A program made the position numbers and the translations under genes. DNA of 63,654 nt, the filler included, from Microthyrium microscopicum (lineage: Eukaryota), in NCBI GenBank assembly GCA_010405405.1. It is 11 parts of 5 records of this genome, joined end to end, with 100 filler letters (N's around TTAATTAATTAA, not from the genome) between each part and the next. Parts side by side here need not be neighbours in the genome. Positions count along the whole stretch, not along the records: positions 3,531 to 34,502 come from MU004243.1; 10 more parts are not named here. One strand, given 5' to 3'. Below, one piece after another: positions 3,431-56,097 of this stretch. The notes beneath the pieces were generated by a model. The model saw nothing but the letters and a program-made list of their open reading frames with translations, was not told the DNA's origin and ran no database searches. Position 1 is the first letter of the stretch. Each line of letters starts with the position of its first letter.

Positions 3431-3530
3431 NNNNNNNNNNNNNNNNNNNNNNNNNNNNNNNNNNNNNNNNNNNNTTAATTAATTAANNNNNNNNNNNNNN
3501 NNNNNNNNNNNNNNNNNNNNNNNNNNNNNN
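3431..3530. other. Artificial 100-bp scaffold linker (N44-TTAATTAATTAA-N44); also at 34503-34602, 37107-37206, 39810-39909, 42722-42821, 45183-45282, 47128-47227, 55319-55418, 59987-60086, 61494-61593
   Basis: Identical six-frame-stop 12-mer centred in N runs of identical length. Confidence 0.97.
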
Positions 3531-8170: not shown

Positions 8171-9262
8171 ATTTATCTTAATTCCTAATACTAATATATA
8201 CTTAAGTACTTCTCTTTTTAGTATTATAGCTAGTTATTAAATTAAATTTAGTAGCGTATCTTAGTAATAAAGCTTAATATTAGTTAAGGTATCTTATTTT
8301 TAAAAGTATAAGAATTATACTTTATTCTAATATTATTCTTTATTATTTTTAGATTAATTAACCTTATTTAGAGATTATTTTTTATATTTAAGAATAAATA
8401 GAAGACAATATATTTAGTAAATATTTCCTAATAATATATTAATTTTATTATAAGACTTAAATAGAGAGCTTAGAAGTATATTTATAAATAGATTAACTTA
8501 AGTAAATAATATTTCTAATATTAATTTTTATAAAGTTCTACTATTATCTTAGATATAAAGATACTTACTAGTATCTATATATTTATCTATATCTACTTTA
8601 ATTCCTAATACTAATATTTAATATTTTTTTCTAGTTTCTAACTTTTATACTTATATATAAAGTTAACTATTATTCTTAAAGTAGTATTAGTTTACTATAC
8701 TACTTATAAAGNNNNNNNNNNATCTATCTTAACTTCTAATACTAATACGTACTTAAATACTTCCTTTTTTAGTATTATAGCTAGTTACTAAATTAAATTT
8801 AGTAGTATATCTTAATAATAAAGCTTAATATTAGTTAAAATATTTTATTTTTAAAAGTATAAGAACTATACTTTATTCTAATATTATTCTTTATTATTTC
8901 TAGATTAATTAACCTTATTTAGAGACTATCTTCTATATTTAAGAATAAATAGAAGATAATATATTTAGTAGATATTTCCTAATAATATATTAATCTTATT
9001 ATAAAACTTAAATAAAGAGCTTAAAGGTATATTTATAAATAGATTAGCTTAAGTAAACTATATTTCTTATATTAATTTCTATAAGGTTCTATTATTACCT
9101 TAGATATAAAGATACTTACTAATATCTATATATTTATCTATATCTACTTTAACTCTTAATACTAATATTTAATATTTCTTTCTAATTTCTAGCTTTTATA
9201 CTTATATATAAAGTTAACTATTATTCTTAAAGTAGTATTAGTTTACTATACTACTTATAAAG
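8171..9262 (+). repeat. ~540-bp direct duplication either side of a 10-N gap (8171-8711 / 8722-9262)
   Basis: Colinear copies with transition differences; the junction is the gap. Confidence 0.85.
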
Positions 9263-16850: not shown

Positions 16851-17722
16851 TAGGCTATACGTAGGTTTTAGTATAGTTATAGGGTTATATTTTAGGTAAA
16901 GATATTAGTTCGTAAGGAAGCTTACTAAATTTAGTAAAGGAATATTCTTTATAAGGACTACTTACTTATAATATCTCTCTTAAGGCGAGCTATATATAGA
17001 TTTTAATATAGTTATAAGTATATATTATAGATAAAGATATTAATTCGTAGGAAAGCTTACTAAATTTAGTATAGGAATATTCTTTAGGAGGACTATACTT
17101 ATAATATCTTTCCTTAAGTAGGCTATATATAGATTTTAGTATAGTTATAGGGATATATTATAGATAAAGATATTAATTCGTAGAAAAGCTTACTAGATTT
17201 AGTAAGAGAATATTCTCTAAGCTATACGTAGATTTTAGTATAGTTATAGGGATATATTGTAAGTAAAAATATTAGTTCGTAGGAAAGCTTACTAAGTAAG
17301 GAAATATTCTTTAAGCTATATATAGATTTTAGTATAGTTATAAGAACGTATTATAAGTAAAGATATTAGTTCGCAGAAAAGCTTACTAAGTAAGGGAATA
17401 TTCTTTAAGCTATATATAGATTTTAGTATAGTTATAGAGACGTATTATAGATAAAGATATTAGTTTATAGAGAAGCTTACTAAGTAAAGGAATATTCTTT
17501 AAGCTATATATAGATTTTAGTATAGTTATAGGAACGTATTATAAGTAAAGATATTAGTTCGTAGGGAAGTTTACTAAGTAAGGAAATATTCTTTAAGCTA
17601 TACATAGATTTTAGTATAGTTATAGAGATATATTATAGGCAAAGATATTAGTTTATAGGAAAGCTTACTAAATTTAGTAAGGAAATATTCTTTAGGAGGA
17701 CTATACTTATAATATCTTTCCT
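16851..17722 (+). repeat. Tandem array of 8 units (periods 135, 133, 99, 94, 94, 94, 94 bp)
   Basis: GCTATAYRTAGRTTTTARTATAGTTATA at 16854, 16989, 17122, 17221, 17315, 17409, 17503, 17597. Confidence 0.93.
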
Positions 17723-17879
17723 AAAATAGCTTTAATAAATAAAATAACACTACGCAAGAGTTTTAATTAGAGTAAATACTATAAGGCTTCTTCCTTAAAA
17801 GAATAAAAGTATAGTTAGGGATTTATAACTATAGTAAAGTTTAGTAAAGCTTAGTAGTAGTAGTTCCTTACTAAATTAC

Positions 17880-19110
17880 CTTATAAGTAAGCCTTAGCTA
17901 TAATGTCCCTTTAGTAGTATTATTCCTTTCGTATATATTATCCCTTTAGGTTAGGCGTTATATCTTAGTAGTAAGAAGGACGTAATTCCTTACTAAATAA
18001 TATTATTCTAGTACATTGTCCTTTTTGCTTACAACTACCTTACTAACTTCTAGTAAGTCTAAGTTGCTAAAGACTTCTATCCCTTTAGTAATAACGTCTT
18101 CTAATACTTTTCTACTACTAATTTATATCTCTAAAAGTAATATTTAGCTTTTAATATAATTGTACAAGCTTTAAGACGTTAATATAGAGTATTTTAGACT
18201 TCTCTATATATATTATATAAGGTAAAGTTACGTTTTAGTAGGCCTACATTCCTTAGCTTATATACTAAACTATTATATATACTATTTAGCTTACTAATTA
18301 GTAGAACTACTAATACTAAATACGTAAGTATTCCTTATAGATACTAATTATCTTATAAAACGTATTTATACTTAAATATCTAAGGGGCTAGCTTACTATT
18401 ATAGAACACTATACTATAGAAAATATAAAAAAAGTAAGAAAATAATATAAAATTAGTACTAAGATAGTTAGTACTACTATATAATAATTCTATAGAGCTA
18501 AATTATATATAAGTTTATCTTTCCTTATTAAATTAAGTATAACTAATACAATTAGGTAATAGAATTATAGTAGAGAAGGTTTAGTAAAGTAAAATTTTTT
18601 AGTATTAAGAGAGAGTAGGACTATAACTCTAATCTAGCTATTATATTTAAGTAGCGCTAAGCTAGTTTATATAGTAAGTAGTACGTATACCTAAGTCTTC
18701 TTAAGCTACTCTATAGCTATGTTAAGAACTAGGTAAGTAGAGAAATAATACTTTTTTAGCTCTTTTATAGAAGAAGGAAAAATTAATTAGCTAATTTAGC
18801 TAAATAATTATTATTTTACGTAACCTAAAATTATATAGAATTCATAGTAATTATTTAAGCTTATACTACATAGTAGTTTTATACTTACGTAGTCTTGCTA
18901 TACTAAATCTTAATAATTTAGTAGTAAGTATTACTTTAGAAATAACATTCTACTACTATAGAGTAAGTCTTCTTAGTTAAAAGGCTCTCTCTATTTCTTA
19001 ATCCTATATTCTCTAGTATAGTATACTTTTATAGCTATCTAATTTAAATATAAAGCTTACTATGCTATTCCTTTCTTAGGACTACTTAAGAAAATATATA
19101 TAGTAAAATA
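17880..19110 (-). pseudogene. Unknown cargo gene relic (spliced)
   Basis: Minus-strand frames with RIP-type stops only; GTAAGT...TTTTAG intron at ~18825-18888. Confidence 0.4.
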
Positions 19111-19164
19111 CTTTATAATAAAATGCTTAGTATTTTCCTTATAGCGTACGCTCTATAGACAACC

Positions 19165-19370
19165 TATTAGAATACGTTAAGGTATTTATCCTTTAATAGA
19201 GAGATACCTTATATAAGGAATTAAGATATTATTTATTAAAATACGTTAAGGTATCTATCCTTTATAAGAAGATGCCTTATATAAGAAATTAAGATATTAT
19301 TTATTAGAATACGTTAAAGTATCTATCCTTTATAAGGAGATACCTTACACGAAGGATTAAGATATTATTT
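19165..19370 (+). repeat. Three tandem 68-69-bp units
   Basis: AATACGTTAARGTATYTATCCTTTA at 19171, 19240, 19308. Confidence 0.92.
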
Positions 19371-19446
19371 TACTTATTATATATATTTATTTTAATAAAA
19401 CAAAAAGAATAACTTATAGTTACTTTTCAAAGTACTATTTAATAAT

Positions 19447-20880
19447 TACTTAGCTTTAAGGCGGCTAAAACTAGTAGAGATTACTAGTCTAACCTATCTC
19501 TATAACCTAGTCTAGTTTTCTAAATATATAGGTATTAACTAGTTAGGATAGCTATAAAGCCTTTCTATTACTAAGTAGTATTATTTAATACTACGTATTA
19601 CTTAGGTAAGTAGAGCTTTCTATAATAAAGCTTATTAAGTAGTATATTTATACTAATACTTAGTAAAATTGCTATAGAGGCATCTTAGTAGATCTTAATT
19701 AATATTAGGACTCTTTTAAGGCGATAATATTATAATAATCTTTATAACTATTTATACTTTAGCATTTATTATTAGAGATATCTTATTATACTTCATTAGT
19801 TACTTTTCTCTAATACGCTTTCTAGAGAAGATTAAAATAGTAAAGTATTTTTTATATTAATTTTTTTCTTTTAAAAAAAAGTCTTAACGTCTTTAACGTT
19901 AATACGTTTTATATTAATATATTACATTACGCTAAGTTAATTTATAGTAATATAGGTAGTTTTTAACTATTAATTAATTAGTATTTTAGTTATACTAAAT
20001 ACTATAACTACTTACTACCTAGAAATACTATATATAGAATATAAATAATATTACTACTCTTTATTAATTATAGCCTACTATAGACTACTATCTATAGTAG
20101 GCTTATTAATAATAACTAATTACCTCCTTATTTAGAGATTTTATCTTATAAATAGGCTTACTAGTTATAATAAAGTAATTCTAATATACCTTTTAAGTCT
20201 AATCTCGTTCTTTCTTTACCTATTTTTTTAACGATACTTTCCTAAGGCTATAGTTCTATATAACCTATTATACTTACGTAGTAATTATACTCTAAGCTAG
20301 GGTATAGTAATTAGGTTATTCTATATATTAGAGGAGCTTACGTTTTATAATATAGAGGAAAGTTAGTTAAAAACTAGTATATTATTTAAATACTATTTAA
20401 ACTAAATACTAGCAAGTTAGCAATTAGGAGAAAGGTTACCTAAAAACTAAAGCTAACTACTACAATTTTCTACTATAATCTTTAATTAAACTAGGCTATA
20501 TAAAGACTTTCTAATATTATTATAGCCTTATTATTATTATATATAGAGATAATTCTACGTAATACCTTATATCCTTAGGAAGTATAAGTACTATATTAAA
20601 AATAATATAAATAGTATAAGTAGGTTATAGGATTATTAACCTATATAAACTACAAGCTCTTAATTTTACTAAGAGTATTCCTATTTACAAAAAGTAATCC
20701 TACCTTAATTTAGTATTAATAGGTATATCTAATACGTTAGCCCTAACGCATAATAGAGGTCACACTCTTTACTTTAGTATAAAGTATATATTTTTTCTAA
20801 GAAGGTTAAGTTTATTAGGTAAAGACTCTAAGTAGCCTTATTAAGGTAATTTAACTATATTATTTATTAGCTAGTAGTTA
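19447..20880 (-). pseudogene. Unknown cargo gene relic(s)
   Basis: Protein-like minus-strand frames at ~19447-19920 and ~20440-20880, broken only by TAA/TAG; family not recognised. Confidence 0.3.
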
Positions 20881-22027
20881 TACTTTAGATATACCTAACT
20901 TTTCCTTAGATAGAAATCTTAATATATATTATTAATTTAAAGTAGTAAATATTATTATTAAAAGAATATAGACATAGAAGCCTCTAAAAAAATAGAGAAA
21001 CTTTATTACTTAGTATATAATTAGTAGTATATTATAAAAAAGGCAGAAATATGCTTTCTATTAATATATACTAGATAACGTAAATAAATATTAATAAATA
21101 TTATTATTAGTTTATTAATATATAGAAGCAAGCTAGTTAACTACTTCTAAATATTTTTATTTAAGTAGTATTCTCCTTAAGTTAAAAAGTACTAGTCCCT
21201 AGTAGATAAAAGTAGCAACTATAGTATATATCTAACTACTAGACAATTAAGTAGTAAAAGAGTAGCTTAGAATTAGCTAACATCTAAAAATATATTACTA
21301 GCTATAGTAGTTACTAACTAGTCGTTATACTTATTTATAAAGAAATATTATAAAATCTAAGTAGTTAAACTTTTAACTTATAGGGCTTATATATCTATCT
21401 ACTTTATTACTTAGTAATAATTAATAACTTTAAGAACAAACTAAGGGTTTATTTAGAATATCTAGGAGTATAGTATAGTAAGCCTATATTTTATATATTA
21501 TAACTAATAGAAATAAAAATACAAAAAGCGTATTATAAGCTATCCTTTGCTAAATTTAAGCTTATAATCTACGCTTTAAGTAAATTCTAAATTTACTCTA
21601 TTATCTACTAATCTACTTTAAGACAGTAGGAATTACTTTTAGCATCCCTATTTATTTTAGTAGTTATTTTTTAATATATTTACTTTTACTTATTATTACT
21701 ACGCCTAGGATAGCAAAGTAAGTATACTACTTTGCTTACTCTAGGTACTTATTATATATTTAGTTCTTTTATCTTTTTAGGAAGTTTTCTATCTATAGAG
21801 ATAGTATTATATTAATAGGTTAAAGCTAATTATAAACTTAGGTATATATTATAGGTATTAATTAGAGTATAGCTAATAGTACTTCTTTATAAAAAGATAG
21901 TTATATTTAACGTAATAGTATATTTCTACTAAAGACTATATTATATATATACTAATAGAGTACTAGATCCTTATCTACTATATTATTAAACAAGGCAATA
22001 CTTTACGTAGAAGAAATATATATTAGT

Positions 22028-22228
22028 AACAAGATAACTAATAAGTAAGAATATATCTACTTCCTTTTACTATTAAAAAGAATACTAACTTAATATTAGA
22101 TTAATAAAAATCTTAATTTAGGTAAGCATTAGCTTCTTTAGAAGCTATATTAGACCCTAATTATTCTCTTAGTTTACCTAGGAGGTAGTTAAGGTTTAAT
22201 ATTAAAAAATAAAGACTTAAAAATACTA
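22028..22228 (+). repeat. ~200-bp direct repeat, left copy, with internal hairpin 22147-22202
   Basis: Colinear with 23151-23350. Confidence 0.93.
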
Positions 22229-22420
22229 AGGAAAACTAAGAACTAAAGATATAAACTAAAAAAAAAATATAGACTTAAAGCAGACCTAGGTATATTATTA
22301 GCAAACTACCCCTTATAAGTAATAAGTTTATAAGTACTATTAATTTATAAGCAAATTAAGAGCAAGACTAACATATAGGTTAAATAAGAGCAGGACTAAT
22401 CTATAGCTTAGCTAGCTAAG

Positions 22421-23120
22421 GGAACTAAAATTAAGAAGGAATTACTTAAGTTAATATATAATAGCTTATAAAATAAGACCTTTACTAGACAAGCTAAGTT
22501 ACTTACGCTAATTAATAATAATTAGCATTAATACCTATAAAAGCAAAAAGAATATTAATCCTACTTATATTGCTTTTTACTATAAAGAGATAAAAAAGAG
22601 AGATAGCTACGTTTCTCTTTTTTATATATAATAATATAGTAACTCTTAATATAAGATTTAGATACGTTAAAACGAAATAGGATCTTTTAGTAATATAATA
22701 AATAATATTATAATAAGATTTTATTTCTAATATAATAAATAACGTTATAATAGAAATAGAATCTTATTATAATATTATTTATTATATTACTAAAAGATCC
22801 TATTTTATTTTAGCACATCTAAATCCTATATTAAGAGTTACTATATTATTATATATACTATCCCTTAATATTCTACTAAACCTTAATATCTAGCTTATTA
22901 AGGTTTAGTAAGACATATATAGTTAGGAACGTAGCTATTCCTCTTTTTTATTTCTTTATAGTAAGGAGCAATATAAGTAGAACTAATATTCTTTTTACTT
23001 TTATAGGTATTAATGCTAACTATTATTTATTAGCTTAAGTAACTTAGCTTATTTAGTAAAGGTCTAATTTTGTAAGCTATTATATATTAACTTAAGTAAT
23101 TCTTTCTTAATTTTAGTTTC
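22421..23120. repeat. 700-bp branched inverted repeat
   Basis: Outer arms 22421-22616 / 22925-23120; inner arms 22623-22736 / 22744-22857; side hairpin 22874-22888 / 22896-22910. Confidence 0.95.
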
Positions 23121-23150
23121 ATTATTCTATATTATAGTAGGAAAATTAAC

Positions 23151-23350
23151 AACGAGATAACTAATAAATAAGAGTGCATCCACTTCCTCTTAATATTAAA
23201 AAGAATACTAACTTAATATTAGACTAATAAAAATCCTAATTTAGGTAAGCATTAGCTCCTCTAGAGCTATATTAGACCCTAATTATTCTCTTAGTTTACC
23301 TAGGAGGCAGTTAGGGTCTAATATTAAAAGATAAAGACTTAAAAATACTA
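23151..23350 (+). repeat. ~200-bp direct repeat, right copy, with internal hairpin 23269-23324
   Basis: ATATTAGACCCTAA...TTAGGGTCTAATAT stem; colinear with 22028-22228. Confidence 0.93.
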
Positions 23351-23559
23351 GAGGAAGTATAATAGCTCTAGATTAATTAGGGAAATAGGCATAGTTAGTA
23401 ATACACCATTATATAAAGGAAAGGGCACGCTACTCTTAATAAGATTACGTACTACGTCTAACTTATAAGATAAAGCCTAAACGCTATAATATTACTAAGA
23501 CGAACTATATACTTTTAAGAACTTCCTATTTTACTATTTAGAATCTATAAATTATAAAT

Positions 23560-26500
23560 ATAGATTATTTTAAGGCAATCTTTAAGAAATATCTATAATA
23601 TAAAGTTATAGTCTATTCTAAATATAGCTATATAGTCCTACTAATATTATTTTCTAGATATATTAAAAAACACTATAAAAGCTTATTACTAACTACTAAG
23701 AAAGAGCTTATTTAGAAACTATAACTCGTTACGAGACTTATATAGAATATTAATAAAGTAGTATTTCTAACTAAGACTTATCTACTAATTCTAAAGATTT
23801 TAATTTATTATAATAGATAAAAATGCTTAGAGTATAGGTATATATATAAAGGCTAAGTAATTTATATTTAAGAGCATTATTAAATTAAGTATAGCTAGAT
23901 TAATCTAAATAAATAAGGTCGTTAGATAATTAAAATACAACGAAATATATTAAATTAGTATTATCTATAAAGAAATAATATTTATTATTAAAAGATCTTT
24001 ATACAGCTACCTTAGGACTAAATTATTAAAGTCTATTAACTACTAGACACCTAGTAAGCAGCTTAGCTACATCCTAAGTACAAAATAATTTAATATTAAG
24101 TATTAGCAACTTAGTAAAGAAAACAAGAAAACTAATATAAGGAATTAATTAATATAAAGAGCATAATAAGCTATCTAGAAGCTAATATATAGGTTAAGCA
24201 TATAGAATAGGCATAAATCCTATAATTATATAAATAAACGTAGCTAATTAGTTTTATACGACCTATTAACGTCTAAATAGAGGCTAAACTCGTAAAAATT
24301 AGTAGATTAGTCTAATAAGTTATCTAAAATACTATTAAGAATTTATAAAAAAATATTATTAGTTAAATAGTACTTAAAATAATTAATTAAAAGATTTTTA
24401 GTAGTAATAGCAAAGATAGAGCTAGAAAGCTAATACTAGTTTAATAATTAGCTAAAATAATTTAAAGATATAGTAATATCTAGTTATAGATTATTTAATT
24501 TGTTTAGCGCATATATAAGGAAGAATAGCTTAAGCTAACTATATCTAATAAAGAAGGCTAAAAAAAGTATTAAAACCTTACTAAAGAGAGGAAAGTAAGG
24601 CTAGACTTTAAGTTAACTAAAAGATAAGATACGCTACTTAATAATATCTAGGACTTATTAAGTATATTACTAAGTAGGGAAGTAAATAATAATTTAATAG
24701 ACGTAGAGTTTATAAATAAGAGTAAAGATAAGAGTATAAAAATAAAATTAAAAGAGGAAAGAAAAAAATTAGATAGTTTAGTTTTAGATTTATTTCTAGC
24801 TTTATTAGATTATAACATTAGTAATATTACACATAAGAGTATTTTTATTACTATAATTATAGTTATTAGTTTAGAAAAAGATAGTAGATAGAAAGATCTA
24901 TTATTATTTACTCTACGTTTATTAGCTATTATTACACTTAAGCATATATTTATATTATATAAAGCTATATACAAGAGAGTAGAAAGAATTACTAAGTTAT
25001 TAAAAAATAAAGAAATATATAAAAAAGATATAGAAGATATAGCTAAGTAGTATTATAAAATTATTAAGTAAATAGTAAAGAGGTTTATAGGATTAGTAGT
25101 AGTAAGGTATATTCTAGGTCTAATTAACTATGTCTTAAAGGTACGTATATATAGATTAAAGATTTAATATAATATAATAGATTAAGAAGTAATTAGCTAG
25201 ATAGATAATAAGTTATTATTTAGTAAGGTACGTTTCTACTTTAATTATGATTTAGAGAATATAATAGCTAAAGTACTAGTAGGTAAGGTATACTTTAGTA
25301 TATTATAACTTAGTTCTATAGTAGTAAACTTATTAGAAGAGACTAGAGAGCATCTCTATAAAGACTTATTATTATTTACAATAGTTATTAATAATAATAC
25401 TATTAAATAGTAGAAATAATATAAATTACTAATAATTTACTAGAAATATCTAGAAGATAATGTATCTAAAATATAGTAAGATTAGAATTTTTTAGTTAAT
25501 AGAAGAAATACTTAAAATAATATATTACTTAAAGAAGCTAGAGACTATTAGATTCTAGACAATTAAGTACTTACTAATTTAAAGATTAATACGAAGTTTT
25601 TACGCATAATACTAAATAAGAAGGAGATACTTAAAGTATATCTAGATTAAAAGCGGATGTTTAAGTACTAAGTAGTAATAGAGAAGATAAAAGAGAAGTT
25701 ATTAGTTCTAATCTATATAACAAGTAGCTAGCTAGCCTAAGGCATAGAAATCATTATAACAAAATTTAAAAATAGGCTAGCTAGTTTATATTAAGGAATT
25801 TTTATTAAGAATAGCTTAATAGTATTTATTACTAAATACTATAAAGGTTTTAATTTATTAGCAATCTTAAAGGTAGTTTATTAATATATACTATTAGAAG
25901 TTAGTAAATTGTTATATTATTATTTATAGCTTATAAAACCTTTTTAGGTATATATATTAGAAATAGCTAGAGTAGAGATAATAAAGAGTAAGTACTTATA
26001 GCTACTAGTAAGTAATAAAAAGGAGTATAATATAGATAAAGTAGATATTAATAATTAGGAAGAAAGGGAAGATAAAGATAGCTATATAGCTATAGAATAA
26101 GAGATATAAGGGTTAAATAATAAAATAGAAGACATAATAGTACTTAAAAAGGATAAAGATAACAATATAGTAAAGTAGGATAAAGAGAAGAGTATTTAAT
26201 TATAGTAAAAAAGTAAGGAATCTATAGAATTTATAAATAAAGAATAGTTATTAATTTAAGTTTAAAAAGTATTAATTTAAGAGATAGAGAAGCATCTAGG
26301 TATATAAATAATAATGTTAATATAGTAATATATATATATTATAATTATATATAAGTATATTAAAGATAGATTAGTAGAACGCATAATTATAAAGTAGGAA
26401 GACAATTTAGGAATAGAAGAAGTATTAAAAACTAGAGTAGAGATAAGTATAGGTAAATTAGATTTAATAGCTAATAAATAAGCTAGTTATAATACGCAAA

Positions 26501-28773
26501 CATTAGTAATAATATATATACGTAGCTATAGTAAAGCGTTTAGTATATTATATACTAGGTAAGAGGCATTTAGAAAAGTAAGTACTACTTAGTATAAGGT
26601 ATTACTATTACTATCTACGCTTAAAGAGGAATAGTAGTTAGAAAAAAGAGGAATACAAACCTTAGTAAAAGTAAGTATAGAGGATAGTATAATATTACGC
26701 TAGTCATTATTACGTTAAATTAATATAAATATATAGTTAGAAAAGTTAGCTAGTAAAGATATAAAGTTTTAGAGTATTTAAAAGCAAGGGATTAAAGTAG
26801 TTATATTACGAAAAAGTCCTATTATTATAATTATAAAAATGGAAGGAGGTAAAAGTTTATTATTTATATTACTAGCGTTATATAAAAGTAGAGGAGTTAA
26901 GGATATAACTATTATTATTATTCTATTTATTACTTTAGAGAAGAATATAATAACGAGATATAGAGATTTATAAATTAATACTATAGAGTAAAACCCTAAA
27001 GGTTAGCAAGATTAGGTAAATATTATTTTTATAATACTAAAGGCGGCTATAGGAAAGGCTTTTTTATAGTTTTTAACTAAGCAAAAGTAAATTAGTTAGT
27101 TAGATAGGATTATATTTAATAAGTATTATACAATATTAGATGCTATAGCGCTAAAGAAGTAGAGGGAAAAGATGCTAGATTTATAGCTATTAATTAAGTA
27201 AGAGATATAAATAGTTTACTTAATAGCGATATTGCTACTAAGGGATAAAGAAACGTTTAAATAAGTAATAGGTTTAATAAGTATTAATCTAAAAACTATT
27301 ATATAGCTATAAGAGTTAATAATACGTAAGAATATTACGTATAAGGTTTAAAAATAGAACTAAAAGCAAGAGAAAGAGGTAGAAGTTTTAAAGTTAGTAG
27401 TAAATAAGTTATTAGTTAAGTATAAAGAAGAGTAAGGGAAGATTATTATATATATTAGTAGGTCTATAGGAATAATTTAAAAGATAACAAATACGTTAGG
27501 CGTAGTGTATTATTATTAGACGTTATTAAAGGATATAAAGAAGAAGACATTAGAGTAGTTAATATAAAGAAGCGTATAGGTGTTTATTTATTTAAGTATA
27601 ATAGGGGTAGGTATTAATAGGCTACTAGTTTATATAGTTATATATCAAGGTAGGACGAGAATAATATAAGACTATATATAGAAAAGTAGATAAGTAGGAA
27701 GGTAAGAATAACTAAGTAAGGTAATTATATTATATTAGGTTATAAAGAATGTTTAAAGAAAGGAGCAAGATAGGTTAGATAAGTAGGCTAAGAAAAATAT
27801 AGTAAAGTTAATCTAAACTAAGCACTATTAGTAACGTATAATTAACTTAGTACTTAATAGTAATTAGACTAGATAATGATATTAAGAAGATAAAGAGAGA
27901 TATAATAATTACGACGCTAAATACTAAGAACGTAGAAGAGAGGTAGCTTATTTAAGTAAAAATAGATAAGTATAATAAAGATATTAGTAAAACTTATTTA
28001 TTTAATCTATTACGATAGCAAAGCAAATACAACCCTATTAGTTTCTAGAAGAATAAGATTAAATTACAAATAATATATAATAAGAGTTTATATAAATTCT
28101 AAAAAAAGATTATAACGACTTTAAATACGCTACATTATTACAAAGAGCCTAAGTATAAGAAGAGTAATAAAGAGATAATAAAATTACTAAGGAGAAGTAA
28201 GGAATAGTAGATATATTTTAAAAATAGAAAAATATTAGCTATTAGTTTTGTATAGTAGTTAGAGGTTATAAGGAAGGAAAAAGAATACTATTACAAGAGT
28301 ATTAAGGCTATATATTAAATAGCTACTAAAGACTAGACGCTTAATTAATTAAGAAGAGGGTAGCTAAGGCTAAAAAAGCTTATAAGGACAAAAGAAATAC
28401 GTAAGCTATATAGACATTACTTATATATTATTTTATATATAGTACGCTATAAGAACTTTATAATAGCTAGACTTTAATAAGATATAGTTATTTTAAAAAG
28501 AAATCTAGCTAAAAGAATATATAGACCTATTAATATAGTAGGCTTATTATTAGAGTTATTATAGTATTATTATATATTTATTAAGACGAGACTTCTACTT
28601 AGATAATAGAAGAAATATAAAAGGAAGGAATTATAAACGTAAAAGCTATAAAGTAGATATAGTTAGGAAGTAGAAGAATATTATATAAGATTAAGTATAA
28701 TTAAATAGTAGAACTTATAATAAAGTTTAAAGGATATATAATTACGTAGTAAGATATATATAAAGCTAAATAG
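23560..28773 (+). pseudogene. RIP-inactivated telomere-linked RecQ-like helicase (DUF3505/OrsD-like N-terminus + tyrosine-recombinase-like region + SF2 helicase + Zn-binding C-terminus)
   Basis: One frame at every point checked. Raw > de-RIP readings: VIVYSKYSYIV > VIVCSKCGYAV (~23605); YITSS*LA*GIE > HMTSGQPARGTE (25714-25749); MEGGKSLLF > TGGGKSLLF Walker A (26839); FNKYY > FDECH (27115-27129); LIAILL > LTATLP (~27220); *KSR*VGR > QESGRAGR (27679-27702); CRR...C...CDNC (~27826-27912). Start and stop inferred. Confidence 0.93.
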
Positions 28774-29898: not shown

Positions 29899-30210
29899 TA
29901 TATATAATTATTAAATTTTAGTTAATAGTATTAACTAGCAAAAATCTAAGAATAATAGCTATATTTATAAAGAATAGATTTTAAGAATAATTATTATAGC
30001 TTTAATAATAAACTTAGAGAATATTTAAGACTAAGTATATATATAAGTTAAGAGAAGTAGATTTATAAATAGTAAAGTTTTTATATAGTTTTCGTAACAT
30101 GTAATAATTAGTAATATAGATTCTAATAATTATATTTAAATATTTATATATATAGTTAGTAAAGATACTTAAAATTAAAAAAGAAAAAGTAAAATATCTA
30201 GTAGTAATAG

Positions 30211-31093
30211 AGTGTACTAGCTTCTATTAAATGCAATAGCTACTACTAAGTACGATAGCTACTACTAAGTATAATAGCTCCTATTAAATGCGATAGCTAC
30301 TACTAAGTGCAATAGCTACTACTAAGTATAATAGCTACTACTAAGTATAATAGCTACTACTAAGTATAATAGCTCCTACTAAGTGTAATAGCTCCTACTA
30401 AGTACGCTAGCTTTCATTAAATACGCTAGCTTCTATTATACTTACTAGCTCCTATTAAGTATAATAGCTTCTATTAAGTATAATAGCTCCTATTAAGTAC
30501 GCTAGCTCCTATTAAGTACGCTAACTCCTATTAAGTATAATAGCTCCTATTAAGTATACTAGCTTCTATTAAGTACGCTAGCTTCTATTAAGTGTGCTAG
30601 CTTCCATTAAGTGTGCTAGCTCCTATTAAATATAATGACTACTACTAAGTATAATAGCTACTACTAAGTGTAATAGCTCCTACTAAGTATAATAGCTCTT
30701 ACTAAGTATAATAGCTTCCATTAAATATAATAGCTCCTATTAAATGCGCTAGCTTCCATTATACTTACTAGCTTCCATTAAGTATAATAGCTTCCATTAA
30801 GTGCGCTAGCTCCTATTAAGTACGCTAGCTTCTATTAAATATGCTAGCTTCTATTACACTTACTAGCTTCTATTAAGTATAATAGCTCCTATTAAGTACG
30901 CTAGCTCCTATTAAGTACGTTAGCTCCTATTAAGTATATTAGCTTCTATTAAGTGCGCTAGCTCCTATTAAGTACACTAGCTCCTATTAAGTACGCTAGC
31001 TCCTACTAAGTACAATAGCTCCTATTAAATACGATAGCTCCCATTATACTTGCTAGCTCCTATTAAGTATAATAGCTCCCATTAAGTACGCTA
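30211..31093 (+). repeat. 19-bp minisatellite, ~46 copies (GCTAGCTCCTATTAAGTAC / AATAGCTCCTATTAAGTAT)
   Basis: Units at 30501, 30520, 30539, etc. Confidence 0.97.
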
Positions 31094-32992: not shown

Positions 32993-33166
32993 AACTACGT
33001 TATATAAGAATTAGTTAAAATTAATTTCTTTATTTAAAATATCTAATAGAATAATACTTAGGCTTCTATAAGTCGTCTTATTTATAGTAAGAGCTTATAA
33101 AAACAATCTATTAATTTTAGTAATTTTATTAGGTTTAGGCGAACTAGTTAAGTTAATAAAAACTCG

Positions 33167-34072
33167 TTAAATATAATAGCTACTACTAAGTGCAATAGCT
33201 ACTACTAAGTATAATAGCTACTACTAAGTGTAATAGCTCCTACTAAGTGTAATAGCTCCTACTAAGTACGCTAGCTTCTATTAAATATACTAGCTTCTAT
33301 TATACTTACTAGCTCTTATTAAGTATAATAGCTCCTATTAAGTATAATAGCTTCTATTAAGTACGCTAGCTCCTATTAAGTACGCTAGCTTCTATTAAGT
33401 ACGCTAGCTCCTATTAAATGTACTAGCTTCTATTAAATATACTAGCTTTTATTAAGTGTAATAGCTTCTATTAAGTGTAATAGCTCCTACTAAGTATGCT
33501 AGCTCCTACTAAGTGTGCTAGCTCTTATTAAATACAATAGCTTCTATTAAGTATAATAGCTCCTATTAAATATAATAGCTTCTATTAAATGTAATAGCTT
33601 TTATTAAGTACGATAGCTCTTATTAAGTATAATAGCTCCTACTAAGTACAATAGCTTCTATTAAATATAATAGCTACTACTAAGTATAATGGCTTCTATT
33701 AAGTACGATAGCTTCTATTAAGTATAATAGCTCCTATTAAGTGCACTAGCTCCTATTAAGTGCGCTAGCTCCTATTAAGTACGCTAGCTCTTATTAAGTA
33801 CGCTAGCTCCTATTAAGTACAATAGCTACTATTAAATATAATAGCTACTACTAAGTATAATAGCTTCTATTAAGTATAATAGCTCCTATTAAGTATAATA
33901 GCTCCTATTAAATATAATAGCTCCTATTAAATGTAATAGCTTTTATTAAATACGCTAGCTTCTATTATACTTACTAGCTCCTATTAAGTATAATAGCTCC
34001 TATTAAGTGCGCTAGCTTCTATTAAGTATACTAGCTTCTATTAAATGTAATAGCTTCTATTAAATACGCTAG
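33167..34072 (+). repeat. 19-bp minisatellite, ~47 copies, same unit and orientation as 30211-31093
   Basis: Directly visible; shares the order of variant units with the first array. Confidence 0.97.
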
Positions 34073-37000
34073 TAGGTACTAATTAGTAATAATACTAATA
34101 TAATAACTAGTATCTACTATTTTCTAATACTAGTATTTAAAATCTAATAAAAAATTATAAATTTAATTAAACTATTTTTTTATATAACTTTAAGTTTTTA
34201 ATAATATATTTTTAGGTTTATAACTAGTAATTACTACCTTTAGTTTTAATTTATTTTTTTCTATACTTTTAATAATTCTACTAGTCTAATACTAGAATAT
34301 TATTAAATTATATTTATAATTAGACTATATAACTTACTATTAAGTACTAAATTAATAGTTAAATTCTTAAATATTAAATATCTCTAGAACTATAGCCTAT
34401 ATAGATAAAATAAAAGAAGTATTAGAATTCTTATAAATAAACTAATCTAATAATATAATATTTAGCCTATATTTATAACTAGTATTAAATACTAATAAAT
34501 ATNNNNNNNNNNNNNNNNNNNNNNNNNNNNNNNNNNNNNNNNNNNNTTAATTAATTAANNNNNNNNNNNNNNNNNNNNNNNNNNNNNNNNNNNNNNNNNN
34601 NNATTATATATATAAAACTAATAAATTATAAAATAATTAATATAATATAAATAATAAAGTATAATAAAGATAAATTTAAATACTAAATATATAATTATAT
34701 ATATAAATATTTAAAATCTATTTATTAATATAAGCTTAAGATATTACTTTTATTTAAAATAAATTAATAATAAATTATATTAATAACTTTATATTATAGT
34801 ATTACCTTATATTATTAAACTTTTAGAAAGTATATATATTAGAATAGTATATACTTTTAATTACTATATATTTTAGCATAGGTTAGATATAAGTAAAAAG
34901 TATAATAGCATTTTAGGTTACTTAAAGAATAAAAATTTATAAAAGAAAAGAAAATAAGTTTTTTAGTATATATTAAGGCTATAGTTTTAATTTAACTACT
35001 ATATAAAAATAAATATATACTTAGCCTAGTAAATCTTTTACTTTATAATAGTCTAAATTTAGGTCTAATATATACTAAGCCTAGATATTAGTCTTATACT
35101 AAGATAGTAGTAAAGTAAAATTATAGATATTAAGTACGTACTTATTATTAATAATATCTTTTTCCTTAATAGTAAAGCTAACTTTAGTATATATTAGCAA
35201 TTTATCTCTAGCTCCTTAGATATATTCTTTAAATATAATTTAGGCTTTTATAGTTAATACGTACTCTATATAATAAGACTTAGACTTATTAAAAACGTGC
35301 TAGCTAATAGCTTTTAGCTTATACTTAGCTAGCTTATACTTAAGCTTAGCCTTAAGCTTAGTATAGGCTAAGATTAAGGCTTTATACTTTTTTAGCGCTA
35401 TAAGCTTCTTATTATAATAATACTTAGCTTAAGCTTAGCTATAAAATTTTAAAAAAAACTTAGAGTTAGTATATACTTAGTAATAAGATTTTAAAGAAGC
35501 CTTAAGCTTAGTATAAGCTTAGCTCTTATAGGAATAAGTAAGTAATAAAGTAATAATCTTATTATTTTTAGACTCTACTTATAGTATTAATATATACTTA
35601 GTATAAGATTATTAAACTTACTATATTTAGGAGTAAAAGAAGAAAGTAAAGTAATAGCTCTTTACTAGGTTAACGTTAGTATATACTTAGCTTAAATTAA
35701 GTAAAGGTTTAACTTATATTATATATAAATTTAGTATAACTAAGCTTATAGTAATAAAATAAGTAAGTACTAATAAGTTTATAAAAAGCAAAATTATTTT
35801 TTCTACTTAAGTTTAGTATATATAAAGCCTATATAAGTATTTTACTTACGCTAAATCTTTTAACTTATTATAAATATTAAAGATTAGAGAATTATTATAA
35901 ATATAATTATTTATATTAGTCTAGTATATATAATATATAGGCTATACTTATTTAAGCTTATTAATAAACTACTAAAATTTCTAATTCTAGACTAGAATTA
36001 TAAAAGTAAAGATATTATATATAGTTAGTATATATAAGCTCTAAGTAAAAGTTATACTTACTAATAAGAAGCGTTAACCTTAATAGTAAACTAGTTAGAT
36101 AACTTAGTATCTTTAGCTACTAATAAAGAATAAGTACGTACTAAATATAAGTAAAATAGACTTACTAAGGCTAAGGTATTAAACTTAGTAGTAGTAGTAA
36201 AGCTACTTAATTAGTAATAAGTTAAGTATAGATAAAGTATATATATACTTATAAATATCTTAATAATATAATTATAGATTATACTTTCCTTATTAATATA
36301 CTAATAGCTATTTAGGTTATAGTTAGTATATGCTAGTTTTATATAGTAATTAAACTTATAGGCTTAAAATTATAGAGAGCTTAACTAAATTAGTAAAAGG
36401 CTTATTATTTTCTATTTAAAGGTTAGTATAGCTCTTATATATACTAAGCCTATATCTATATTATTATAACTATTACTCTATTCTTTATAACTATTATAGC
36501 TACCCTATTAATTTAGTTTAAGTAAAGTATAATTAGTTTTACCTATTATAAGCTTAGTATATACTAACTATAGCCTTAATATAAAAACTTACTTATTAAT
36601 AGGATATATTTAGGATTTAAGTATTTAACTAAACTTATAAGTATAACGTTAGTATAGGCATAAAAAGGGCTATAATACGTACTAAACTTACTATAAATAT
36701 ATTCTTATTTTAGGTATATATTTCTAAGAGGGTTCTTAAAGATTTTATAGTACTAGTCTATACTACGTATAATTTTAGCTTAGGCTAAGAAATTAAGATA
36801 AATAGTTATTATACTTAAGATAAGCTTAAGCTAAAGATATAAAATAGTTAAAGAAGTAAAGAAGAGGTAATACTTTAAGTAGACTATAAATATAAGCTTA
36901 GCCTATATAGATTATTATTATGCTAGTAGTAAATATAAACGTAATATATAAATCCTTACTTTTTAAGGTTTTATAAAGTTAATATAGATTAAAAAAGAAA

Positions 37001-37849
37001 GAGGAATTAATCTTATGTATAATATATACTAATTAAGGTAAATAGTTTAAGATTAATTACTATATATATACGCAAAAGTAAGCTAGTACTACTTAATAAG
37101 ATAAATNNNNNNNNNNNNNNNNNNNNNNNNNNNNNNNNNNNNNNNNNNNNTTAATTAATTAANNNNNNNNNNNNNNNNNNNNNNNNNNNNNNNNNNNNNN
37201 NNNNNNTAATAATAATAGTTTTATAGAATAATTCTAAGAAATTAATCTTTTAGTATAATGATGCTTTTTTTAGCTTTATTATAATACTATATAATAGTAT
37301 AATCTATATAATAAAGAATAATAAGAATAATATATAACTCTTTATAGCCTATTATAAATAGGAATAGTAGAAAAGTAAGAATAATAATTAATAGTATAGT
37401 AAAGTCTTAACTAAGAATTATTAGTAATATAACTTTATATAAGCTTAAGCCTATTTTATATCTAAGAAAGAGCTTAATAATAATTTTAGTCTTTTAGGTT
37501 AACTTTCTATATAATTATTTATTATTTATATAGTATATAATATAAATTAAATAATAAGAGATTTTAAATTATAGCGTAAATATATTAAATTTTTTATAGC
37601 TTTAATTTAAAAGTATATACTAATCTTAGGAAAAGCTATAAAACTTATATTTAATAAGCTATTAGGTTTTATATTATTTAAGCTAACTATAAAGTTAAAA
37701 GTATATAAACTAAATAAACTATTAACTATTATATATATAGTTCGTTATAAGTACTTAAAGTATTCTAATTATTATTAATTAAATTTATACTCTAATTATA
37801 ATAATTATATTAAAATATATAACTTAGTTATCTTTAGTAAATAAGGAAT

Positions 37850-47389: not shown

Positions 47390-50200
47390 TATTTTCTTTT
47401 TGTATTATATTATATTACTTAATTAGTATAATTTAACTATTTTTTAAATTTAATAGATATAGAATATAGGTAAAGAATAAAGTACTATATTTTTCTATTT
47501 TAAGAGATAAACTAATTAATTTTTAGCATTAGATAAGAAAATAAATTAAATTTATATATAATCTTTACTACCTTAGTACTACTATTTACCTTATACTTTT
47601 ATATTATATTACTTAATTAGTATAATTTAACTATTTTTTAAATTTAATAGATATAAGATATAGGTATAGAATAAAGCGCTATATTTATCTATTTTAAGAG
47701 ATAAACTAATTAATTTTTAGTATTAAATAGAAAAATAAATTAAATTTATATATAATTTCTACTACCTTAGTACTACTATCTACCTTATACTTTTATATTA
47801 TATTACTTAATTAGCATAATTTAACTATCTTTTAAATTTAATAGATATAGGATATAAGTAAAGAATAAAGTACTATATTTTTCTATTTTAAGAGATAAAC
47901 TAATTAATTTTTAGTATTAGATAGAGAAATAAATTAAATTTATATATAATTTCTACTACCTTAGTACTATTATCTACCTTATACTTTTGCGTTATATTAT
48001 TTAATTAGTATAATTTAACTATTTTTTAAATTTAATAGATATAGGATTTAGGTATAGAATAAAGCGCTATATTTATCTATTTTAATAGATAAACTNNNNN
48101 NNNNNNNNNNNNNNNNNNNNNNNNNNNNNNNNNNNNNNNNNNNNNNNNNNNNNNNNNNNNNNNNNNNNNNNNNNNNNNNNNNNNNNNNNNNNNNNNNNNN
48201 NNNNNNNNNNNNNNNNNNNNNNNNNNNNNNNNNNNNNNNNNNNNNNNNNNNNNNNNNNNNNNNNNNNNNNNNNNNNNNNNNNNNNNNNNNNNNNNNNNNN
48301 NNNNNNNNNNNNNNNNNNNNNNNNNNNNNNNNNNNNNNNNNNNNNNNNNNNNNNNNNNNNNNNNNNNNNNNNNNNNNNNNNNNNNNNNNNNNNNNNNNNN
48401 NNNNNNNNNNNNNNNNNNNNNNNNNNNNNNNNNNNNNNNNNNNNNNNNNNNNNNNNNNNNNNNNNNNNNNNNNNNNNNNNNNNNNNNNNNNNNNNNNNNN
48501 NNNNNNNNNNNNNNNNNNNNNNNNNNNNNNNNNNNNNNNNNNNNNNNNNNNNNNNNNNNNNNNNNNNNNNNNNNNNNNNNNNNNNNNNNNNNNNNNNNNN
48601 NNNNNNNNNNNNNNNNNNNNNNNNNNNNNNNNNNNNNNNNNNNNNNNNNNNNNNNNNNNNNNNNNNNNNNNNNNNNNNNNNNNNNNNNNNNNNNNNNNNN
48701 NNNNNNNNNNNNNNNNNNNNNNNNNNNNNNNNNNNNNNNNNNNNNNNNNNNNNNNNNNNNNNNNNNNNNNNNNNNNNNNNNNNNNNNNNNNNNNNNNNNN
48801 NNNNNNNNNNNNNNNNNNNNNNNNNNNNNNNNNNNNNNNNNNNNNNNNNNNNNNNNNNNNNNNNNNNNNNNNNNNNNNNNNNNNNNNNNNNNNNNNNNNN
48901 NNNNNNNNNNNNNNNNNNNNNNNNNNNNNNNNNNNNNNNNNNNNNNNNNNNNNNNNNNNNNNNNNNNNNNNNNNNNNNNNNNNNNNNNNNNNNNNNNNNN
49001 NNNNNNNNNNNNNNNNNNNNNNNNNNNNNNNNNNNNNNNNNNATCTCTACTACCTTAGTACTACTATTTACCTTATACTTTTATATTATATTACTTAATT
49101 AGTATAATTTAACTATTTTTTAAATTTAATAGATATAAGATTTAGGTATAGAATAAAGTACTATATTTTTTTATTTTAATAGATAAACTAATTAATTTTT
49201 AGCATTAGATAGGAAAATAAATTAAATTTATATATAATCTTTACTACCTTAGTACTACTATTTACCTTCTATTTTTATATTATATTACTTAATTAATATA
49301 ATTTAACTATTTTTTAAATTTAATACGTTTATAATTTAAGTATAGAATAAAGTACTATATTTATTTATTATAAGAAATAAACTAATTAATTTTTATTATT
49401 AGATAAGGAAATAAAATTAAATTTATATATAATCTCTACTACCTTAGTACTACTATCTATCTTATACTTTTGTATTATATTACTTAATTAGTATAATTTA
49501 ACTATTTTTTAAATTTAATAGATATAGGATATAGGTAAAGAATAAAGCACTATATTTTTCTATTTTAAGAGATAAATTAATTAATTTTTAGTATTAGATA
49601 AAAAAATAAATTAAATTTATATATAATCTCTACTACCTTAGTACTACTATCTACCTTATACTTTCGTATTATATTACTTAATTAGTATAATTTAACTATT
49701 TTTTAAATTTAATAGATATAGGATTTAGGTATAGAATAAAGTACTATATTTATCTATTTTAATAAATAAACTAATTAATTTTTAGTATTAAATAGAGAAA
49801 TAAATTAAATTTATATATAATCTCTACTACCTTAGTACTACTATTTACTTTCTACTTTCGTATTATATTACTTAATTAGTATAATTTAACTATTTTTTAA
49901 ATTTAACGCGTTTATAATTTAGGTATAGAATAAAGTACTATATTTATCTATTATAAGAGATAAACTAATTAATTTTTAGCATTAAATAGAGAAATAAAAT
50001 TAAATTTATATATAATCTTTACTACCTTAGTACTACTATCTACTTTATACTTTTACGTTATATTACTTAATTAGCATAATTTAACTATTTTTTAAATTTA
50101 ATAGATATAGGATATAGGTAAAGAATAAAGCGCTATATTTATTTATTATAAGAAATAAACTAATTAATTTTTAGTATTAGATAAGAGAACAAATTAAATT
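47390..50200 (+). repeat. 194-bp satellite array spanning the gap at 48096-49042
   Basis: TATATTACTTAATTAG at 47411, 47605, 47799, 47993; about 6 further units after the gap. Confidence 0.95.
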
Positions 50201-53632: not shown

Positions 53633-56097
53633 ATAAGACCTCTTTACCTATTTTCCTACTTATATTATAATATCTTATATAGTAAGTATATACTCTATAG
53701 CTTATTTATAATTTTTATCTTAAATAGCGTCTTAATAGCTATAAATTACTACCTAATACTAAATCCTTAACTAAGTGCTATAATAGTATTATAGATACTA
53801 ACNNNNNNNNNNNNNNNNNNNNNNNNNNNNNNNNNNNNNNNNNNNNNNNNNNNNNNNNNNNNNNNNNNNNNNNNNNNNNNNNNNNNNNNNNNNNNNNNNN
53901 NNNNNNNNNNNNNNNNNNNNNNNNNNNNNNNNNNNNNNNNNNNNNNNNNNNNNNNNNNNNNNNNNNNNNNNNNNNNNNNNNNNNNNNNNNNNNNNNNNNN
54001 NNNNNNNNNNNNNNNNNNNNNNNNNNNNNNNNNNNNNNNNNNNNNNNNNNNNNNNNNNNNNNNNNNNNNNNNNNNNNNNNNNNNNNNNNNNNNNNNNNNN
54101 NNNNNNNNNNNNNNNNNNNNNNNNNNNNNNNNNNNNNNNNNNNNNNNNNNNNNNNNNNNNNNNNNNNNNNNNNNNNNNNNNNNNNNNNNNNNNNNNNNNN
54201 NNNNNNNNNNNNNNNNNNNNNNNNNNNNNNNNNNNNNNNNNNNNNNNNNNNNNNNNNNNNNNNNNNNNNNNNNNNNNNNNNNNNNNNNNNNNNNNNNNNN
54301 NNATAAATAGAAACTTATTATTATTTATAATATATAATAGTAATATATCTAAATATATAAGTACTAATATTAAGCTTAAGTTAAGATAGCTTTCTAAGAG
54401 TAGTATTAGTAGTATTAATAATAACCCTAATAAGGTATCTTTTCTTAAAAATAGTAATACTTTACTACTACCTAGTAATATATCTTACTTAGTTATTACT
54501 TTTAAACTAAATTATTATTATTTATTAAAAAAAAGAAGGAAAATCTTTATTATAGCCTTATTTCTATCTTCTATACTACTACTACTAATTAAGCTTATCT
54601 TTAATACTTTATTATATAATAATAAGTATAGCTTTATACTTAATACTACTACTCTATTAGTATTTATATCTTAGAACTAATAAAATTACGCTAATACTTT
54701 TATAACTATTTCTTTAAGAATAAGTATAATAACTTTAGTAAAGAAAGTAGTTAAAGTTATTAAAGCCTTCTTCTCCTTTAATTCTCTTTCTTTATTACTA
54801 AATTATTATCTTAAGAGAAATATATCTTTACGTTATATAATGCTAAATATTAAGTTCTTCTTTAGGTTTAATTTATTAATTACTTTAAAGAAGAAAAGTA
54901 GTTACTATCTACCTTATAGAATAGCTAAACGTATACTAGTTTCTAAGCCTTTAGGCTATAAGACATAAAATATTTTAGTTACTTTATTCTTACTTATTAT
55001 AAAACTAATATTTTTTACTAAATTATAATAAACCTAAGCTAGTAGGCTATTCTATAATATTATAGATATATCTATTCTATTTCTAATACTCTATTATAAA
55101 AATTATATTAATATATATTACTTTTATAAATTAATATATATATATACTAGTAACGTAAGAAGTAGAAAATAAAATACGCTACTAGCTCTACTAAGCTAGT
55201 AAATTACTAGCTATAAAATAAATAAATAGCCTAGTCTAAAGCTATCTTAGTCTTAGGTATTAGTTAATAAATAGTTTATTAATAATAGACTAAAGATTAA
55301 GGAGTTAAAGAACTATATNNNNNNNNNNNNNNNNNNNNNNNNNNNNNNNNNNNNNNNNNNNNTTAATTAATTAANNNNNNNNNNNNNNNNNNNNNNNNNN
55401 NNNNNNNNNNNNNNNNNNAGTAAAAGATATATTAATTAAAGTATAAACTATAAAATAATTAGATTATAGATATAAGTTATTATTTAGATCTCTTTTCTAG
55501 TATTAATATTCTCTAAGGTATAGAACTTATTTATAAGAACTTAAGATTCTATCTTAATACCTCTTCTTCTTAGGAACTTATTTAGTAATAAAATATAGTA
55601 AGTTAGTCTTAGAGCTCTTATAGAGCTAGAAATAGGGCATAGAAAAGGCTAGACTAGACTAATAGTAAATATATATAAGAGCTATTATTAGAATAATATT
55701 AACGTTCTAGTTAAAAATAAAGACGTATAAAGCTATTATATTAAGAACTATTAATAAGTATTATAAAGTAGTAAAGTAAGTACTTACTTAACTTATAAGA
55801 TATAAGTTATACCTAAGCTATATTTTAGCTACGTAATTATTAAAATAAAATTAACTTAGATACTATTTTTTTTTTATTTAAATAGGCTTTATTATATCTA
55901 CTAGTAAAGTAAATAAAGTATTAGAGTATATAGCTTTTTAAGGATAATAGCTATTATTACTTATACTAGGTACTTAAAGTATAGTAGTACGTAATTTCTT
56001 AAATACTTAATAATATTATCTTTTAAAAGCTTAAAACTTAATTAATTAGTTTACTAAGCTTTATATAGATAGCTAATATACTTTAGTATTATTAGTA

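Follow-up and report, generated by a model that had tools for sequence, protein, structure and literature searches.

In Microthyrium microscopicum, the relic of a helicase gene is preceded by a palindromic stretch of about 700 bp, and the question raised by this locus is whether that stretch was a working part of the helicase unit or came to lie at its edge for other reasons. A branched foldback had been predicted here, and this structure is real: it occupies 708 nt of the window, by which we mean the whole 63.6-kb stretch of DNA that was analysed, and consists of two long inverted repeats and a small hairpin that meet in a three-way junction. The repeat search placed the outer inverted repeat at positions 22417-22616 (left arm, plus orientation) and 22925-23124 (right arm, minus orientation), with 200-nt arms that are 91% complementary (181 of 200 positions). 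The arms of the inner inverted repeat, at 22623-22735 and 22745-22857, measure 113 nt, are 93% complementary (105/113), lie 9 nt apart and form a hairpin of 235 nt (22623-22857). It is followed by the segment of the small hairpin (22858-22924), the stem of which, at 22874-22910, was detected by local BLAST as a palindrome (38 nt, 89%) with its loop at 22889-22895. The structure is far beyond chance: folding of 22400-23140 as single-stranded DNA yielded -242.5 kcal/mol, compared to -64.3 +/- 5.5 kcal/mol for 20 dinucleotide-preserving shuffles, none of which equalled the real fold (z = -32). The edges are sharp, as pairing ends at 22417 and 23124 with the flanks remaining unpaired, and that of the inner hairpin ends at 22623 and 22857. 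Each outer arm additionally carries two copies of a 23-nt subrepeat at a distance of 57 nt (in the right arm at 23020-23042 and 23077-23099). Neither Rfam nor a tRNA scan returned a match in the foldback region, and the only open frames longer than 50 aa (52-83 aa) all fall within the AT-rich palindrome.

The geometry of the foldback strongly suggests how the branched shape came about. The full 708-nt structure has two terminal loops; when the 235-nt inner hairpin is excised in silico, the remaining 473 nt form a single continuous hairpin (-159.9 kcal/mol) with the 7-nt loop at 22889-22895 as its sole terminal loop, and the midpoint of this construct falls on position 22888. The outer palindrome thus ends in the small hairpin, which is nothing but its tip. 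By itself, the inner hairpin folds at -79.1 kcal/mol; it is located 36 nt to the left of the outer palindrome's centre, and neither of its arms belongs to the 473-nt palindrome, which is otherwise symmetrical. Since removal of the inner hairpin leaves an intact and centred hairpin, the geometry is that of the insertion of a ready-made palindrome rather than that of a designed Y. We therefore favour, as the somewhat more probable reading, that the 708-nt structure represents two nested foldback or MITE-like repeats that lie at the upstream margin of the helicase unit and were fossilised by RIP; a nested insertion is what the original prediction had named as the alternative to a functional role. 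A 473-nt palindrome with a 7-nt loop would have taken up a second palindrome of 235 nt, and the off-centre position of the latter would give rise to the apparent Y shape. The derivation of both palindromes from mobile or captured DNA is an inference, as is the succession of events.

Palindromic miniature inverted-repeat elements of the foldback type exist and do nest into one another. The structure described here resembles them in being non-coding, hairpin-shaped throughout and sharply bounded, with tiny loops, and in carrying one unit inside another; a TA dinucleotide may also be present at each edge of both units. This would suit an element that targets TA, although in RIP-mutated DNA with 80% A+T the TA itself is uninformative, and a longer target-site duplication cannot be discerned. 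Unlike a proven foldback or MITE family, however, neither palindrome has a further copy in the 63.6-kb window, as judged by local BLAST, although nesting of mobile units would lead one to expect a dispersed family, and we know of no related transposase. The window also contains runs of N, which occur as pairs of 44 N placed 12 bases apart at 11 places (including 3431-3530, 34503-34602 and 37107-37206) and as longer runs at 48096-49042 and 53803-54302; repeats under these runs are invisible to such comparisons. Four DNA sequencing runs from a single sample and study contain 54-65% of the words sampled, and may derive from the material that gave rise to the assembled window; no RNA run was listed.

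The region is mutated in the manner of RIP, and this signature bears on both the age and the authenticity of the palindromes. The window has a G+C content of about 20% throughout, like RIP-mutated fungal DNA, and the (CpA+TpG)/(ApC+GpT) ratio is 0.22 in the foldback, 0.13-0.24 in its flanks and 0.17 in the helicase gene; the TpA/ApT ratio of the foldback amounts to 1.46. Most differences between the repeat copies are transitions, with 15 transitions and four transversions between the outer arms, seven and one between the inner arms, and 19 and six between the two copies of a direct repeat that brackets the region (see below), the mutated base residing in the upstream copy for 17 of these 19 transitions. 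If transitions are disregarded, the copies are 97-99% identical (transversions at 4/200 positions in the outer and 1/113 in the inner arms, and in 6/229 columns of the direct repeat), indicating that this was their identity prior to RIP and that all of them were present when RIP struck. The divergence of the arms by RIP-type transitions excludes an assembly artefact in which the arms would be identical. RIP would thus have mutated insert, repeats and gene together at a later stage. On this reading the foldback would be functionless today, and a nested relic of this kind would be ordinary genome debris in a RIP graveyard.

The resemblance of a Y-shaped foldback to viral replication origins requires comment. 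The inverted terminal repeats of AAV and other parvoviruses are T-shaped, with a long stem that branches into two hairpins, and the long stem of the M. microscopicum foldback likewise branches into two hairpins. In contrast to parvovirus termini, the foldback is internal, with tens of kb of assembled DNA on both sides, and its branches are of very different size (235 and 67 nt), the geometry being that of a palindrome plus an insertion. In addition, its neighbour encodes a zinc-finger, recombinase-like and RecQ protein and not a Rep-type (HUH) nickase as in parvoviruses. The value of our analysis is in this respect mainly negative, as it advises against taking the Y shape for an origin of the parvovirus kind.

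The neighbouring gene is a RIP-killed relic of a telomere-linked helicase on the plus strand, which extends from 23563 to 28680, the 3' end being extrapolated. Its domain order is an OrsD-type zinc-finger N-terminus, a tyrosine-recombinase-like middle domain and a RecQ-like helicase. Stop-masked translation of 24397-27996 retrieved 881 relatives at E <= 0.001, the best of which (P0004, E 9.5e-125) was matched over nearly its whole length; by tblastn, residues 3-1114 of this 1,385-aa protein are collinear with 24466-27864. Pfam searches of the stop-masked translation returned nothing because RIP defeats Pfam. Many of the relatives extend further at the N-terminus, where they possess a zinc finger of the OrsD type (PF12013). 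When a profile was built from the first 520 aa of 17 relatives, its positions 6-475 aligned with 23578-25095 in the helicase frame (E 4e-31), placing the coding start near 23563; a profile of the first 300 aa alone gives a weak but collinear match (E 0.0014). At the finger positions the relic displays Cys-to-Tyr and His-to-Tyr changes, as RIP would yield. The foldback thus ends 439 nt ahead of the coding start, in agreement with the 440 bp given in the original prediction. The foldback had also been placed between divergently oriented gene relics, and this statement holds for the helicase on the right side only: on the left, a Pfam search of stop-masked translations in all six frames of 17000-22400 returned nothing, and ORFs from 80 related loci matched the window nowhere outside the helicase relic, where matches begin at about 24600-27600. 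A RecQ-type core preceded by a domain specific to the family, the TLH domain, is what characterises the TLH family, and this arrangement is present here. In two of the relatives, L016 and L048, the sequence beyond the 3' side of the gene terminates in TTAGGG arrays, which identifies the family as that of the telomere-linked helicases. The window itself contains no match to three TTAGGG units with up to two mismatches, so that this particular relic is internal. An assignment to the AcademH-type helicase transposons was rejected, as a DUF6589-type transposase domain was absent from 29 flanking ORFs, hand-picked among the 69 that reach a length of 130 aa or more in 23 related loci.

The description of the neighbour as a recombinase-helicase is supported by two parts of the protein. 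A RecQ helicase makes up the C-terminal half (RecQ1, E 4.6e-58). For the middle domain, an alignment of 14 intact relatives was made and the structure was predicted (pLDDT 65.5, pTM 0.67). Foldseek ranked Cre, XerH, XerA, Flp and lambda integrase at the top with weak scores (E 0.03-0.1), and VIA-align gave Z-scores of 8.8 for Brujita integrase (rmsd 3.6, 148 aligned residues), 8.7 for Cre and 8.5 for XerH, bearing in mind that a Z-score near 8 can reflect a common arrangement. Altogether 25 chains reached Z >= 8, and all 18 entries listed between Z 8.8 and 8.0 are tyrosine recombinases. A sequence profile search of the middle domain against the PDB retrieved no recombinase. In the family alignment, columns for Arg, Lys, His/Arg, His and Tyr are invariant. 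Together with the VIA-align scores, these columns support a tyrosine-recombinase-like fold for the predicted middle domain.

Such a fold beside a palindrome invites the speculation that the foldback was a working DNA element of the helicase unit, that is, a hairpin origin, a site for the recombinase-like domain or a junction of an extrachromosomal form. We regard this as improbable, although the fold and its invariant residues are among the points that speak for it. TelK, TelN and ResT are telomere resolvases of the tyrosine-recombinase kind, which cut the palindromes of replicated telomeres, and the window resembles these systems in that a palindrome lies beside a gene for a protein with a tyrosine-recombinase-like catalytic fold. 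Unlike resolvase substrates, the foldback is no dyad of the spacer-less type, and relatives do not keep it beside the gene for the enzyme (0/10, see below). The fold matches listed for the middle domain comprise integrases, Cre, Xer and Flp with no resolvase among them, which is uninformative either way.

If the foldback were a working element, an equivalent structure should precede other copies of the gene. A metagenome scan for helicase relatives returned 80 loci, and 41 of these were scanned for inverted repeats over the whole locus. Inverted-repeat pairs were present in five of the 41, and only in L012 was such a pair located upstream of the gene. Using the N-terminal profile to define true starts, at least 1,138 nt of upstream DNA are available in ten relatives (L007, L022, L028, L030, L038, L042, L043, L044, L045 and L048), and none of these ten carries a large inverted repeat upstream of the helicase, the largest pair among them being one of 32 nt in L044 (E 0.004). 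A comparison of the foldback and of the direct repeat with the 80 related loci gave low-complexity matches in L029 only. In eight of 21 contigs (L002, L006, L014, L015, L016, L024, L029 and L033), the sequence begins 387-553 nt upstream of the helicase start, and these eight therefore have no say on the presence or absence of a foldback. Six of the eight begin 3-146 nt before the short upstream module described below, and the upstream margin of the helicase unit seems to be a place at which assemblies break. Two of the loci contain a second or partial helicase 5' region, with an OrsD-type N-terminus, in tandem with a full copy (L014:6076-7065 and L045:590-4372), and these regions have diverged past recognition at the nucleotide level.

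The inverted repeat of L012 deserves mention: it is large, holds inner palindromes and precedes the helicase gene, and it therefore speaks for a functional element and against a nested insertion. Between its arms of about 180 nt (299-476 and 1090-1270, 82%), units of 60 nt are repeated in tandem, and every one of them carries a palindrome of 25 nt of the type TTTCGGCATG..CATGCCGAAA. The helicase gene of L012 is 5'-truncated, with the profile matching from position 194, and a third copy of the arm is located at 8202-8338. The whole inverted repeat (295-1272) has no sequence in common with the foldback of the window. The TTTCGGCATG..CATGCCGAAA palindrome recurs at six more places around the L012 gene, and the exact 24-nt palindrome of L012 is also found at L042:6732-6755. 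The original prediction of an origin, resolution site or fused-end junction is not upheld by these comparisons, given that large inverted repeats were absent from all ten informative relatives and that the one in L012 is unrelated.

The immediate surroundings of the foldback hold a further feature that any explanation has to accommodate. A direct repeat of 222 nt, referred to as DR1 (22020-22242) and DR2 (23143-23364), both in plus orientation, brackets the foldback together with 175 nt of unique DNA. The copies lie 1,123 nt apart and match at 22022-22233 and 23145-23356 over 213 nt with 90.6% identity, DR1 being the more RIP-mutated copy. The order is DR1, the unique spacer U1 (22243-22416, with 1.9 copies of a 28-nt unit at 22357-22410), the 708-nt foldback, about 19 nt, and DR2, which corresponds to positions -420 to -199 relative to the helicase start. 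DR2 contains an imperfect palindrome of 57 nt (23269-23324) with single CCCTAA and TTAGGG units, and it is possibly the upstream boundary segment of the helicase unit. Neither U1 nor the direct repeat has a further significant copy within the 63.6-kb window. An LTR-like reading of the direct repeat was dismissed, since a matching flanking duplication and a primer-binding-site-like sequence were both lacking. A flanking direct repeat of 222 nt is not a feature of transposons either, and the insertion of a transposon leaves it unexplained, so that a second event or another mechanism is needed. According to the nested reading, the foldback composite and the 175 nt of unique DNA would form an insert of 900 nt at the upstream margin of the helicase unit, with a copy of the unit's 222-nt upstream segment on either side.

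The direct repeat would be accounted for, without any mobile element, by a local accident of repair or replication at a boundary of the subtelomere type, from which both the palindromes and the direct repeat might have emerged. Conceivable routes are fold-back priming at breaks, template switching and break-induced copying from another chromosome end. We consider such an accident rather unlikely, while acknowledging that several observations fit it. The identity of 97-99% shared by the direct repeat and both inverted repeats points to one complex event or a short window of time, and the absence of another copy of either palindrome from the window is as expected. One foldback arm and DR2 share a weak similarity over 52 nt (z 4.4, equalled by 2/300 shuffles, one of eight comparisons), and truncation of chromosome ends with capture of sequence is documented for the helicase ends of Magnaporthe oryzae (PMC1635262). 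Simple fold-back copying, however, duplicates neighbouring sequence, and U1, the inner hairpin and the arms all lack a nearby source copy. An inner hairpin with arms foreign to the surrounding palindrome is also better explained by the insertion of a ready-made unit than by copying in place.

Some relatives do share a feature upstream of their intact genes, which is much smaller than the foldback. Eleven of the 21 loci, and likewise the DNA ahead of the second gene copy in L014, carry three copies of a lineage-specific word (10-14 nt) in the same orientation, with spacings of 50-64 nt (53-55 in nine) followed by 14-25 nt; the resulting module is located at -620 to -340, its first copy of the word at -620 to -342. 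A relaxed test for three copies yielded 89 hits in total, many of them tandem arrays elsewhere, compared to 0-2 per shuffle. A strict test, in which an adjacent inverted copy has to complete a palindrome of 20-26 nt, yielded six instances (L019, L023, L024, L028, L033 and the second copy of L014), all of them 360-620 nt upstream of the gene start; one further hit was a low-complexity array, and each of ten shuffles gave none. L015, L016, L029, L037 and L038 were recovered by the relaxed test only. In nine loci in which the surrounding 6-12 kb were checked, the word was absent elsewhere except for two one-mismatch matches in L028. Around the module, L024 and L028 are 82% identical, and the word differs at all four sites; such co-variation would be expected of binding sites that co-evolve with a protein. 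Judging from these sequence patterns, it may be that the protein binds the upstream words through its own zinc finger or through its recombinase-like domain. The expectation of an equivalent structure upstream of other TLH copies is thus borne out in a changed form only, as a palindrome of 20-26 nt at the same relative position, and not as a large foldback (0/10). This short palindrome, the position of which is conserved in some relatives, is not the same object as the 708-nt foldback. Single TTAGGGTTA units occur near the module in four loci.

In the window, words resembling AATATTAGAC are present at 23192, 23215 and 23268 on the plus strand and at 23316 on the minus strand, with spacings of 23, 53 and 48 nt. 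These words of DR2 were considered as a mirror-image module; the formal test failed on either strand, and their arrangement is possibly due to chance. Over the whole window, AATATTAGAC-like words are not enriched (46 compared to 38.6 expected). The stretch 22089-23328 is enriched in CTTAATAT and in a 13-nt word, with seven of the 60 and seven of the 41 matches in the window, respectively; several of these matches duplicate one another through the repeats, however, and the choice of the word was made post hoc.

An upstream repeat boundary of this kind is partly known already from the helicase-associated repeats of M. oryzae. In that species, repeats upstream of the gene constitute the 'near boundary' of the shared unit, beyond which the chromosome ends become unique; the repeats include telomere-like motifs and an imperfect palindrome of 23 bp in HAR-D, and transposons were mapped across these terminal regions (PMC1635262). 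DR2 and the module of the relatives occupy the same kind of place as the block HAR-CDEF described there, and the foldback adjoins this place. In contrast to HAR-CDEF, the foldback measures 708 nt, is copy-specific and lies beyond the boundary; the two are likened by position. Furthermore, the repeats of the M. oryzae block stand in tandem (PMC1635262), whereas a distance of 1,123 nt separates DR1 from DR2. The palindrome of HAR-D may be the same thing as that found in the relatives. A text search of a Fusarium TLH preprint yielded no mention of palindromes or hairpins. By its position, ending 19 nt before DR2 and thus outside the duplicated upstream segment, the foldback adjoins the helicase unit on the outer side of its upstream edge, a kind of place in which insertions are frequent and chromosome ends switch partners. 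It would accordingly be an insertion or rearrangement specific to this copy at a recombination-prone boundary of the subtelomere type, which the helicase element would not have needed.

The module nevertheless has to be weighed in favour of a functional element, as the relatives keep a 20-26-nt palindrome and two direct copies of the word at a similar distance from the start, and as the word co-varies between L024 and L028. Moreover, a copy of the upstream segment flanks the insert on each side, as would also be seen after the integration of a circle. If the module were the putative site of the recombinase-like domain, a circle of about 1.1 kb, made up of a copy of the module, the 175 nt of U1 and the foldback, might have integrated into it, leaving a copy of the module on each side and explaining the bracketing repeat in one step. 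We consider this very improbable. Were it true, the helicase-recombinase would have mobilised a small element with the foldback as its body and perhaps as its replication hairpin; and if the upstream module were the protein's site of action, this would bear on the long-standing question of the way in which helicase units spread among chromosome ends. Against any working role of the foldback in the unit stand its absence from the relatives, the nesting which in itself explains the Y shape, its location outside the duplicated upstream segment, the failure of this segment in the formal module test on both strands, and its internal position in an assembly window that lacks telomere repeats. We thus retain two nested foldback repeats, inserted at the upstream edge of the unit, as the preferred reading.

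Two further observations concern the DNA of the helicase unit itself. The GC skew is strongly positive along the coding strand of the helicase, ranging from +0.28 to +0.55 between 25000 and 30000 of the window and from +0.37 to +0.77 along 1500-6000 of L012. About 1.5 kb downstream of the helicase relic, two arrays at 30187-31093 and 33148-34121 with about 46 copies of the 19-nt unit TAGCTCCTATTAAGTACAA flank a 2-kb stretch with a raised G+C content of 25-29%, and the helicase-associated tandem repeats of M. oryzae occupy a place comparable to that of these arrays.
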